A stretch of 64,000 bases of DNA from Torpedo marmorata (taxonomy: Eukaryota), in contig OZ360230.1 of NCBI GenBank assembly GCA_977017645.1, positions 1 through 64,000 of the forward strand. The letters are read 5' to 3'. The stretch's first letter is position 1. Each line of letters opens with the position of its first letter. A program made the translations under genes and the position numbers. Positions 2,523 through 4,830 of the stretch are shown here, piece by piece. Under the pieces are notes generated by a model, which saw only the letters and a program-made list of their open reading frames with translations, was not told the DNA's origin and searched no databases.

Positions 2523-4160
2523 ATGTCTCAACCACGGAACACGAGAACGAAGGTGAGCAGTTACAGATCTGGAAACAGATCGAATCCAAATTCGAACGGG
2601 TCTGCTTTGCCACAGTGGGACCAGTTCGCGATCTCGGTGAGACTGATGTACAAATTGGCACAGAACATGCATCATCTTAAGGTTTTGGAAGGGCAAGCCC
2701 TCCCACCGAGAGGAATTCGAAGGCAGGCGCAGAAATTAACCAACTTTATTAAACCGGCGAATCCGAGCCAGGAAACTCTGCACAGATTGGCAACAAATGC
2801 AGAAACGTGGGCAGAAGCTACACGAGAAATTTTAATTGAACATTACAAAAACAGCCTGCAACAAATTGGCAGTATTGTGGCCCAAACTGAATTGACTGAC
2901 CGGCTGCGGGAGGCAGCCGCCAAAGCAGTAATTTGGAACAGGCGAAAAGCACACGACAAATTCAAAATTACAGTCGCGGAGGTTCAGAGAAAGGTGATGG
3001 ATTCGATCCCCAGAACCGAACCCACAGGGGTCTCAGTCCCTCCGCGCACCTCCAACGTTTCTCGCATGTTCCCGCTGACCACCGAGTCGGCTTCTCAAGA
3101 GCAACGGGCTGCGGCCCAGACCTCTCGGGACCGGCGCACACCCAACCCCACCACCACCACACACACGCACCAGTACCCCAGGATTACAGGGACACGGGAA
3201 CCCCTCCCAGGACTGGACCGCGCACGGCCGCAGCCTGCGATCCTACCTCATGCCCCGAGAGAGGATCCCACCCCAGCAGACACACAGATACCGGTCTGGA
3301 CGATCCCACCGGCCAGCAGCACACCACCCCGCAGCCAACGGAGGCCACGAGGTAGCGGGGGGTCGCACACAAGCTCCCGAGACACAACTTGGGTACGGGA
3401 TGCACCCACAGTCACGGATCCCAGCCCAGGGGGTATCCCTACACCACCCACAGTCCAGGCCACCACCTCCGCCTGCTCCCCCTCCCGACCCAGGCAGACA
3501 CGCAGACAGACTCGCAGGCAGGAGGAGAGAGAGAGCGACCACGTGGCAGCTGCCGCGACTGTCCCACACTCACAGCAGGCCCCCAGCACGACAACACAGA
3601 GGGTCCCTAGCAGCCGTAGCGACAGAGAGGATAGGAGAGATGTAACTAGGCACCCTAACTCCAAACAGAAGAATGTGAATTGGCGACTTAAACCAACTAA
3701 ACCTGTGCTAATAATTGGAGACTCTAATATTTCCCGCATTAAAGCGTGCCCTAACAGGCACACACAACTGGACAGCTATCCAGGGGCAAAATTTATCCAC
3801 GCAAATTCTATCCTGGAAAAATTGGAACCGTGCCATGAAATTAAACAGGTGGTCTTATCAATTGGCATAAACAACCGGTCACAAAGACCTCTGACAGCTA
3901 TTAAACAACTCCAGGGACTGCTTAAACAAGCCAGCATTAAATTCCCAAATGCCAGCACCTGGGTGCCCGTGATCAACTTTAGCCAGGCACTACCAGAGAG
4001 AGAACGGGCAACCCTGGTAGGGTTAAACGAGTTCATAAAAACCAAGAAGCACCTCCCAGCAGTCCCTGATAACCAGTTTAGAGTAGGCCCAGACAACATC
4101 CACTGGACGGAGAATACAGCCCGGGCTGTTATTAAGGGGTGGATGAAGTCTTTAAACTAA
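2523..4160 (+). CDS. Retroelement ORF1, 545 aa: N-terminal helical region, Pro/Thr/Arg-rich linker, C-terminal SGNH/GDSL esterase
   Basis: Uninterrupted ORF; SGNH blocks VLIIGDSN, SYPGA, LSIGINN and DNIHW. Confidence 0.9.
   Translation: MSQPRNTRTKVSSYRSGNRSNPNSNGSALPQWDQFAISVRLMYKLAQNMHHLKVLEGQALPPRGIRRQAQKLTNFIKPANPSQETLHRLATNAETWAEATREILIEHYKNSLQQIGSIVAQTELTDRLREAAAKAVIWNRRKAHDKFKITVAEVQRKVMDSIPRTEPTGVSVPPRTSNVSRMFPLTTESASQEQRAAAQTSRDRRTPNPTTTTHTHQYPRITGTREPLPGLDRARPQPAILPHAPREDPTPADTQIPVWTIPPASSTPPRSQRRPRGSGGSHTSSRDTTWVRDAPTVTDPSPGGIPTPPTVQATTSACSPSRPRQTRRQTRRQEERESDHVAAAATVPHSQQAPSTTTQRVPSSRSDREDRRDVTRHPNSKQKNVNWRLKPTKPVLIIGDSNISRIKACPNRHTQLDSYPGAKFIHANSILEKLEPCHEIKQVVLSIGINNRSQRPLTAIKQLQGLLKQASIKFPNASTWVPVINFSQALPERERATLVGLNEFIKTKKHLPAVPDNQFRVGPDNIHWTENTARAVIKGWMKSLN
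4151..4157 (+). promoter_or_regulatory. -1 ribosomal frameshift slippery heptamer T_TTA_AAC
   Basis: In ORF1 frame directly before the TAA stop; the -1 frame is open (FKLNETTNQ...) and reads as a PLE RT N-terminus. Confidence 0.7.
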
Positions 4161-4830
4161 ATGAGACCACAAACCAAGTGTGGCACATACCTAAATTAGG
4201 GAGAACAATTGTGAAACTGTCCCAGACATTTACCCCGAATGAAACCCAGGAGAGGACAGTGAACAAGGGCCTGACCTTGGTACCCACTGCAAAAATCACA
4301 AAACATCAGATCCAGGCAGAGGTGAGGCATTTTACAGGAGAATCAAATCAATAGAGCACTTCAGTGGCTCAGACTCCACGAGGAAACCCTGCGGTCCATC
4401 CTCAAATTGGGAACCCAACCCAAACCATAGAAACCCCAGGGGAAATTATGGGCTTTCTATTTTAAACGGAGGATGCCAACAAAAGAATAGACACAGTATA
4501 GGATAGACCCACCTGACGAGGGAGCAGGGACGTGCCCTGACAGAAGTGAGGAAAACAAGGAAATAGTCAAAAAAACTAGTCGACAAGGGGAGCAGCATGG
4601 TCAGCATGGAGAGGCAGCAATAATAGGCAGATCCAGCTAGAATCTAGTAATAGCAGCAAGTTAGCCACAGGATCACGCACAGTAGATCCCCAGGCTGAAG
4701 GCATTTAAAACCAAACCAACCAACTAACTAGGAATAACAAAACAGAGCGAACAAATTAAGGGACCCTCCAACACCCCCACCACACCAGTTCCAGCCACCA
4801 ACACACGGGTACGGTACCACACTCCATCTA
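4151..4830 (+). pseudogene. Decayed N-terminal part of a Penelope-like reverse transcriptase (ORF2)
   Basis: IVKLSQTF..NKGLTLVPT, SSNWEP, HLTREQGRALTEVRK..EIVKK and DKGSSMVSMERQQ* match PLE pre-RT motifs (NLS..KGL.F.PT; NLT.EE..AL..L; KPADKG); stops and frameshifts; no catalytic YxDD region seen. Confidence 0.8.

Follow-up and report, generated by a model that had tools for sequence, protein, structure and literature searches.

The window analyzed here is the first 64,000 nucleotides (nt) of the forward strand of contig OZ360230.1 from Torpedo marmorata (assembly GCA_977017645.1). Close to its left end are two head-to-tail copies of a 5.9-kb unit that we read as a derivative of a Penelope-like element (PLE); each copy has an open reading frame (ORF1) for a predicted esterase followed by the decayed start of a second one (ORF2) (Table 1). 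Self-alignment of 975-6864 with 6880-12768 gives 99.86% identity across 5892 nt. Since three homopolymer indels of 1 nt, together with the junction, are all that distinguishes the units, the ORF1 copy in unit 2 (8427-10064), which encodes an identical protein, is not independent evidence. The unit has an intact native ORF1, has lost the reverse transcriptase (RT), thumb, and endonuclease (EN), and carries a hammerhead motif and 515-nt terminal repeats (pseudo-long terminal repeats, pseudo-LTRs) in polar, telomere-joined copies. The hammerhead, the 515-nt terminal repeats, and the three telomeric junctions were absent from an earlier note on this DNA.

Table 1. Features of the tandem units and their surroundings (window coordinates)
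Feature	Position	Strand	Basis or remark
Unit 1 of RT-less PLE	975-6820	+	5' end enters N gap 202-973
5' pseudo-LTR of unit 1	975-1471	+	99.4% to 6334-6829
Internal AACCTAAC motif	1461-1468	+	One base short of telomeric C-strand; site of all three 3' junctions
Complete type I hammerhead motif	2223-2375	+	Descriptor match; cleavage predicted after 2370
ORF1, 545 aa	2523-4160	+	Uninterrupted over 545 codons (ORF list, translation)
Decayed ORF2 N-terminal-domain remnant	4148-4635	+	Profile search, frameshift-aware alignment
A/C-rich stretch replacing RT core, thumb, EN	4636-5290	+	No detectable ORF2 homology
Multi-branched RNA fold closed by perfect 10-bp stem	5121-5267, copy 11024-11170	+	Fold scan
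Degenerate CCCTAA-like tract in 3' untranslated region (UTR)	5288-5455	+	Related tract near 6128-6270
3' pseudo-LTR of unit 1, 515 nt	6315-6829	+	99.6% to 6861-7375
Perfect (CCTAAC)7 tract separating units 1 and 2	6821-6864	+	Tandem-repeat scan
Unit 2	6861-12720	+	Hammerhead 8127-8279, ORF1 8427-10064, remnant 10052-10538, 3' pseudo-LTR 12217-12720
ORF2 remnant of unit 2	10052-10538	+	ORF2 profile match
Telomeric and variant repeats, ~24 hexamers	12721-12871	+	Tandem-repeat scan
5'-truncated 210-nt fragment of 3' end	12871-13080	+	94% identical to units, 198/211 columns
Telomeric repeats (13081-13159), then 15-bp telomere-variant array (13170-13401)	13081-13401	+	Tandem-repeat scan

The earlier note had described ORF1 as pristine beside a decayed RT, with the catalytic serine (GDS), oxyanion Gly/Asn, and DxxH retained. 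This description holds: ORF1 is open over its 545 codons, ORF2 is broken with its catalytic core gone, and GDS401, G421, GxN450, and D524xxH527 are all in place and aligned. In an alignment of the window protein with 129 homologues, the S/G/N/D/H set (blocks I, II, III, and V) is fully retained in 121 of the 130 proteins, the window's ORF1 among them. The protein comprises a helical domain (amino acids [aa] 34-161), a disordered linker, and an SGNH esterase (aa 374-545). AlphaFold, which the earlier note had suggested for both ends of the protein, predicts the helices of 34-161 and, past a linker modeled with low confidence, an alpha/beta domain at the C terminus. Its model of aa 378-545 has the SGNH fold, matching PAF-acetylhydrolase with Z 16.9 (root mean square deviation 2.9 Å, 167 residues aligned), and a structure search with the C-terminal domain returned 80 matches at E ≤ 0.001, SGNH hydrolases. 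The esterase of ZfL2-1 ORF1 (PDB 4c1b) was the structural match of rank 50 (E 2.8e-4), behind cellular SGNH hydrolases. Pfam gave two subthreshold matches on ORF1 and none to SGNH. On the model, the C-terminal domain is an SGNH hydrolase fold with a complete residue set, for which esterase activity is predicted.

The N-terminal part (window 2622-3005) is also predicted with confidence, as five helices with a mean confidence score (pLDDT) of 94, but without a clear structural match. The best structure comparison reached Z 7.1, with none at 8 or above, Foldseek returned nothing at E ≤ 0.001, and the Atlas gave no usable match; this lack of a clear Pfam, PDB, or Atlas counterpart settles neither the novelty nor the knownness of the fold. 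A sequence search with this domain alone recovered only P0002. The domain is common to all relatives, and H50, H51, P78, N92, W96, L104, and H107 are invariant across 109 homologues; the conserved histidines might bind metal or RNA.

The ORF1 family is large (2537 representatives at E ≤ 0.001, 840 at 1e-30), and the window protein groups with P0001, P0002, and P0003 in a subclade with support 99/98. We collected 28 related loci, several of them near-duplicates. In 19 of these the sequence continues for 1400 nt or more past ORF1; all 19 contain an RT core, and most show a GIY-YIG-type motif. Pfam identified RVT_1 together with GIY-YIG in two of three relatives' ORF2s and GIY-YIG alone in the third, one of these matches lying just below the cutoff. 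Esterases have already been mentioned in Neptune-like PLEs of fish and molluscs (PMC5408684), and the peptides encoded by two Fundulus Neptune primers (PMC12602865) resemble motifs in the ORF2s of our relatives. The Neptune group is defined by a Cys-rich linker between RT and EN (PMC8557442; PMC3846280). This linker occurs in only 1 of the 11 related ORF2s with an EN motif, and the region is deleted in the window, so that the Neptune label is likely but not proven. Judged by ORF1 type and the primer-derived peptides, the parent was likely a fish Neptune-type PLE. The esterase noticed earlier is thus real but no unusual capture: by its sequence relationships, it is the native, normal ORF1 of fish Neptune-type PLEs. 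Homology to the ORF2 N-terminal domain, pseudo-LTRs and tandem units, and the type I hammerhead upstream likewise mark the window element as a PLE by descent.

Two peculiarities were seen among the relatives. In L006, L008, L024, and L025, intact Neptune-type ORF2s have long in-frame Pro-Asn runs, encoded by CCCTAA-like repeats, between RT thumb and EN; several relatives have thus taken telomere-like sequence into their reading frames. In six distant relatives (L013, L014, L019, L022, L023, and L026), a weak match (13-31 bits) to ORF2 profile positions 558-666 follows the EN positions, hinting at an altered domain order or a short duplication of the ORF2 C terminus.

What is left of ORF2 was delimited with a 751-position profile built from 11 related ORF2 proteins. 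The remnant corresponds to positions 12-181 (~170 codons; 65-70 bits in the frameshift-aware alignment), and its start overlaps the ORF1 stop in the same arrangement as in intact relatives. It is broken by frameshifts near 4328 and 4553, by an extra one at 4569 in unit 1 only, and by in-frame stops. The earlier note had placed an RT remnant here extending to 4830; a decayed ORF2 does lie downstream of ORF1, but its homology ends ~200 nt earlier, just past a decayed IKPADKG motif, and covers only the domain preceding the RT core. Beyond that point, the match of 4621-5290 to the profile was no better than that of shuffled sequence (23 of 40 shuffles reached its score), and in a second test 13-29 of 30 shuffles did so in all 12 settings, with a positive control scoring 82 versus -0.2 ± 5.1. 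RT motifs that had been spotted by eye in 4640-5000 were dropped, their score being no better than shuffles. For RT core homology past 4635, the profile search came up empty in both units and throughout the remaining window, and it gave no match above noise to positions 620-750, the GIY-YIG EN, in either unit. At the remnant's rate of decay, taken as 3-5 disabling events per 490 nt by our own count, the chance of ORF1 staying unbroken would be 4e-5 or less.

Four indirect tests agree in supporting purifying selection on ORF1 after RT loss, as the earlier note had proposed. In a comparison with the eight loci having both ORFs, 34 of 38 conserved columns are preserved in the esterase but only 18 of 30 in the remnant (p = 0.008). 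The esterase is as similar to its relatives (38.1% identity) as they are to each other (37.7%), whereas the remnant has fallen to 27.0% versus 36.9%, and the terminal branch of the esterase is short (0.23, median 0.45). Further evidence comes from four coded runs with separate contigs (X1-X4), whose different labels need not mean different host species. X2 differs from the window at 58 of 1931 positions (3.0%) in ORF1 and flanks, at 39 of 380 (10.3%) in the remnant, and at 39 of 705 (5.5%) downstream (p = 9e-9 and 0.003); the X3 values are 4.8% for ORF1 and flanks and 9.9% for the remnant. Of the variants in the remnant, 6 of 24 are synonymous, matching the neutral share of 24%, compared with 4 of 7 for ORF1, counts that rest on the 40 of 248 variants and 12 of 56 indels listed, with remnant frames partly set by eye.

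These runs also bear on the RT-less layout itself. X1 record 6 covers 4065-5105 with seven differences and has the 4328 frameshift, so that the decay did not arise in assembly; X1 may, however, come from the source species itself. In X2, 4329-5300 is tiled by records 12-16, of which record 13 spans 4635, where RT homology ends. The 4328 frameshift and a stop at 4463 are absent from X2, X3, and a second X1 contig, which indicates a sister subfamily with less decay; its X2 form still lacks an RT core at this place. X3 cover is low at 4488-4695, and its high-depth ORF1 contigs (records 18, 19, and 22) are free of gaps. X4 contigs cover 11 of 30 bins, and that X4 is RNA is only a guess. Record 28 of X4 contains a short stretch of the element's 3' part (window 5168-5295) whose 5' flank is unrelated DNA without telomeric repeats, which suggests that certain copies may be interspersed.

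The 5' pseudo-LTR of unit 1 sits in two 307-bp modules (977-1586, period 307, 2.0 copies). The three 3' junctions, those of both units and of the truncated fragment, all fall at one internal motif, GATAACCTAAC, with small register shifts, and this motif is the putative priming site. Since the junctions share the motif in varied register and one of them belongs to a fragment only 94% identical to the units, repeated insertion is indicated. The copies are polar, lying head to tail on the C-rich telomeric strand with each unit ending in (CCCTAA)n; CCCTAA outnumbers TTAGGG by 51 to 4 in 2001-14000 and is scarce elsewhere in the window. The succession of perfect repeats, elements, and variant repeats would fit a left chromosome end with the 5' ends of the elements facing the tip. 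CCCTAA-like tracts comparable to those of the 3' UTR follow ORF2 in relatives L001, L011, and L012. At the extreme left of the window, beyond a gap of 772 Ns, positions 1-201 are a degenerate, non-telomeric (GTTAAA)n array.

The hammerhead motif consists of a 5-bp stem I (2223-2227/2371-2375), the CUGACGA core (2228-2234), GAAA (2266-2269), a GUC triplet, and a stem III of 6 bp plus an A-U pair with an insert of ~90 nt. On both strands of the window, the descriptor matched only here and at the copy at 8132; none of 1000 composition-matched controls matched, a generous comparison since the descriptor was defined after the motif had been seen. The predicted cut lies 152 nt upstream of ORF1, whose start codon is the first ATG past the cut. 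Among the 28 related loci, six have a hammerhead core ahead of ORF1 and three have one after ORF2. The structured stem III insert (2270-2368) holds a second GAAACTAG motif, whereas relatives have a minimal palindromic stem III. An Rfam scan of 950-13500 returned a weak U3 match and did not list the hammerhead; on 15 related loci Rfam reported one tRNA, and even the clear hammerheads of relatives went undetected.

Our preferred reading, to which we give a probability of about 0.62, is that the element is a non-autonomous, ORF1-only derivative of a Neptune-type PLE whose RNA is copied in trans by the RT of a sister element, primed on telomeric DNA. The upstream terminal repeat would give rise to a tandem transcript that contains the priming motif as well as the 3' UTR and that its hammerhead may trim. 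The ORF1 protein would work in cis on its own RNA, forming or localizing a particle, and such cis action would account for ORF1 alone being kept under selection. An autonomous Neptune relative would supply the RT, and reverse transcription would begin internally, with AUAACCUAAC pairing with the 3' end of the telomeric G-strand. That end could be exposed naturally, as an overhang, or through nicking of a telomeric tract by the EN of the helper, two routes that look alike in the sequence because both leave repeats on each side. Truncated 5' ends would then abut telomeric repeats, either added by telomerase or pre-existing in the target. Parts of this scheme have been demonstrated or proposed elsewhere. 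The related ZfL2-1 ORF1 protein has been shown to dimerize, to hydrolyze its substrate, and to bind phospholipids, and it has been proposed to act in the assembly or transport of particles (PMC3905857); internal initiation of reverse transcription was shown in vitro for an anole PLE (PMC11167929); and EN-deficient PLEs are described as priming at telomeres through short complementary repeats (PMC6431247; PMC3846280).

The closest family comparison is with the fish Neptune PLEs (PMC5408684; PMC12602865), which share the ORF1 family, the ORF1-ORF2 overlap, the hammerhead upstream of ORF1, terminal repeats, and CCCTAA-like tracts in the 3' UTR. Unlike them, the window element has no RT core, thumb, or GIY-YIG EN, its hammerhead has a long stem III, and its copies abut perfect telomeric tracts. 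The parallel to HeT-A drawn in the earlier note also stands, in that both are ORF1-only elements from a two-ORF parent, in a polar head-to-tail array, with a long strand-biased 3' UTR (PMC6581046) and RT presumably provided in trans. HeT-A, however, is a jockey-clade LINE (long interspersed nuclear element) with a Gag-like ORF1 in a telomerase-free host, whereas the window element, a PLE, combines an SGNH-type ORF1 with a hammerhead and lies among canonical telomeric repeats; the relation is one of analogy, not membership. HAL1, too, is non-autonomous and ORF1-only and arose repeatedly in vertebrates (PMC5753468). It differs in being L1-derived, interspersed, and without a ribozyme, and it is not known to form telomeric junctions.

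Among PLEs, Athena/Terminon, Coprina, and the EN-less, Neptune-like MjPLE01 of shrimp (PMC6431247; PMC3846280; PMC8557442) share the polarity and the 5' truncation beside telomeric repeats, and EN-deficient telomeric PLEs also have a hammerhead and, where the 3' end meets the telomere, a short motif complementary to it. Their RT is encoded by the elements themselves, whereas the window element lacks the RT core and its relatives carry an EN; moreover, the telomeric motif lies directly downstream of the hammerhead in Terminons but ~760 nt upstream of the hammerhead core here. According to a recent survey (bioRxiv 10.64898/2026.07.22.740005), EN-deficient telomeric PLEs have not been reported from vertebrates. 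The survey describes non-LTR retrozymes, which are likewise non-autonomous PLE derivatives in tandem units with one type I hammerhead each and whose multimers are enriched at Xenopus chromosome termini and centers. Retrozymes, however, are non-coding and 51-972 bp long (the survey's tandem search was limited to 1000 bp), compared with a 5.9-kb unit and a 545-codon ORF here. ZfL2-1 ORF1 resembles the window protein in having an SGNH esterase behind a helical region (PMC3905857), but ZfL2-1 is an L2-clade LINE with demonstrated enzyme and lipid-binding activity, whereas the window esterase is predicted only.

Several observations weigh against the preferred reading. A true chromosome end is not established, because the gap is followed distally by another 201 nt, which are not telomeric; a single duplication or an assembly repeat could account for units 1 and 2, and the register differences at the junctions could be homopolymer errors. 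An autonomous sister PLE, which the earlier note had named as a possible RT source, is still the likely donor, but no such partner was found among the 28 related loci, none of which falls in the window's own ORF1 subclade, and a search with the 64-residue first piece of the remnant scored none of nine candidate parent ORF2s, which is weak evidence. The constrained hammerhead fold lies 5.7 kcal/mol above the minimum-energy fold, and another PLE did not need hammerhead cleavage in vitro (PMC11167929). The synonymous excess in ORF1 is non-significant (4/7, p = 0.06; ORF1 versus remnant, p = 0.17), and none of the X3 contigs listed bridges 4635. Finally, the 5' UTR is as well conserved as ORF1 (2 of 160 differences in X3, 6 of 298 in X4), and divergence is higher in the remnant than in the non-coding stretch that follows (10.3% versus 5.5%, p = 0.006); together these suggest mosaic subfamilies, so that the contrast between ORF1 and remnant may be inflated.

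A rival reading is that the unit is a dead patchwork: an active Neptune element would have contributed its 5' half, recently fused through template switching or recombination with an old, decayed 3' half, and the product would have spread by tandem DNA duplication or subtelomeric exchange, with ORF1 intact only through youth. The excess divergence of the remnant fits such a history, as do the two remnant types side by side in X1 (records 6 and 7) and the near identity of units 1 and 2, which have the same 5' sequence as far as the gap. We nevertheless think it rather unlikely, given that the native ORF1-ORF2 overlap is retained, that X2 contigs reproduce the RT-less layout although their ORF1 diverges by 3%, that the 94%-identical fragment ends at the same 3' junction, and that the high-depth ORF1 contigs of X3 are gap-free. 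A step beyond the non-autonomous PLE derivative that we prefer would be a mutualistic counterpart of HeT-A, with ORF1 steering its own RNA and a helper RT to chromosome ends and so lengthening telomeres beside telomerase. HeT-A itself is an RT-less TAHRE relying on the RT of TART (PMC6581046), and the polar array on the C-rich strand, the long A/C-rich 3' UTR, the terminal redundancy, the telomeric tracts between copies, and the variant repeats on the proximal side would all suit this role. Yet the perfect telomeric repeats imply that telomerase is presumably active, leaving a host need unsupported; nothing in ORF1 hints at telomere binding, its N-terminal domain being that of all relatives; and X4 record 28 joins a 3' piece to non-telomeric DNA. 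Such a role is therefore improbable. As a whole, the most ambitious composite, a vertebrate HeT-A made from a PLE (esterase-only, cross-species, at true chromosome ends, with EN-free priming on G-overhangs, a Neptune RT, telomere delivery by ORF1, and extension beside telomerase), is doubtful and unlikely to hold in every part.

The two remaining ideas, both raised in the earlier note, fared poorly. Domestication of ORF1 as a host gene, with the remainder as decaying flank, would agree with an intact and constrained ORF1, but the unit keeps its hammerhead, terminal repeats, junction motif, and repeated telomeric junctions, it has several copies and subfamilies as well as insertions at telomeric sites, and nothing suggests a single-copy locus; we regard domestication as very improbable. 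That TERT reverse-transcribes the element RNA is barely credible, no evidence for it having been found. TERT copies a short template within its own RNA and is not known to copy external templates of kilobase length; RT-bearing Neptune relatives, moreover, are the family norm. In its favor are the telomeric junctions and the shared ancestry of PLE RT and TERT (PMC8557442).

The function of retroelement esterase ORF1 proteins is described as an open question (PMC3905857). An RT-less family that keeps a catalytically complete ORF1 would amount to a natural experiment, implying that ORF1 acts in cis and is needed in mobilization, and its ORF1, hammerhead, and single priming motif would make a small substrate with which to assay trans-complementation. 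With such a family, the ORF1-only way of life known from HeT-A and HAL1 would reach a third class of retroelements, and a PLE derivative would be placed at vertebrate-type telomeric repeats. Every ingredient has precedent; the novelty would lie in the combination of an esterase-only, hammerhead-bearing Neptune-type derivative with a polar telomeric array. Our literature search, whose scope did not extend to Repbase, Dfam, the Terminon paper PMC5850863, subscription papers, or supplements, found no description of an ORF1-only or telomere-attached vertebrate PLE. In the excerpted list of telomeric retrotransposons, Tx1-1_ACar of the anole is the sole vertebrate entry (PMC10088271), and excerpts of an elasmobranch genome paper do not mention Penelope (PMC10620051).

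The 3' UTR holds one further candidate RNA structure, the multi-branched fold at 5121-5267, with z -2.9 (3 of 200 shuffles) for limits picked by eye. Its match to Rfam U3 (E 0.27) lies under the gathering score, and weak U3-like box C'/D motifs (CACGAGGA ... TCTGAG) occur within it. Contigs of all four runs cover part of the fold, which could be a protein-binding or k-turn element.

Elsewhere in the window, 26000-47000 is ~20 kb of T-rich degenerate satellite with periods of 58-67 and 117-119 bp, possibly subtelomeric, whose ORFs look like repeat artifacts. Broken LINE fragments lie at 48283-53105 and 57899-58246, L1-like in part with one weak zf-RVT match below the cutoff; the others we take to be CR1-like. 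Together with the telomeric repeat and an ORF1 homologue bearing a tilapia name, LINE fragments of the window point to a vertebrate host, and those in the flanks perhaps to a cartilaginous fish. At 15219-15382 are three tandem 55-bp units, 93% alike, presumably resembling the tail of a LINE or of a short interspersed nuclear element.

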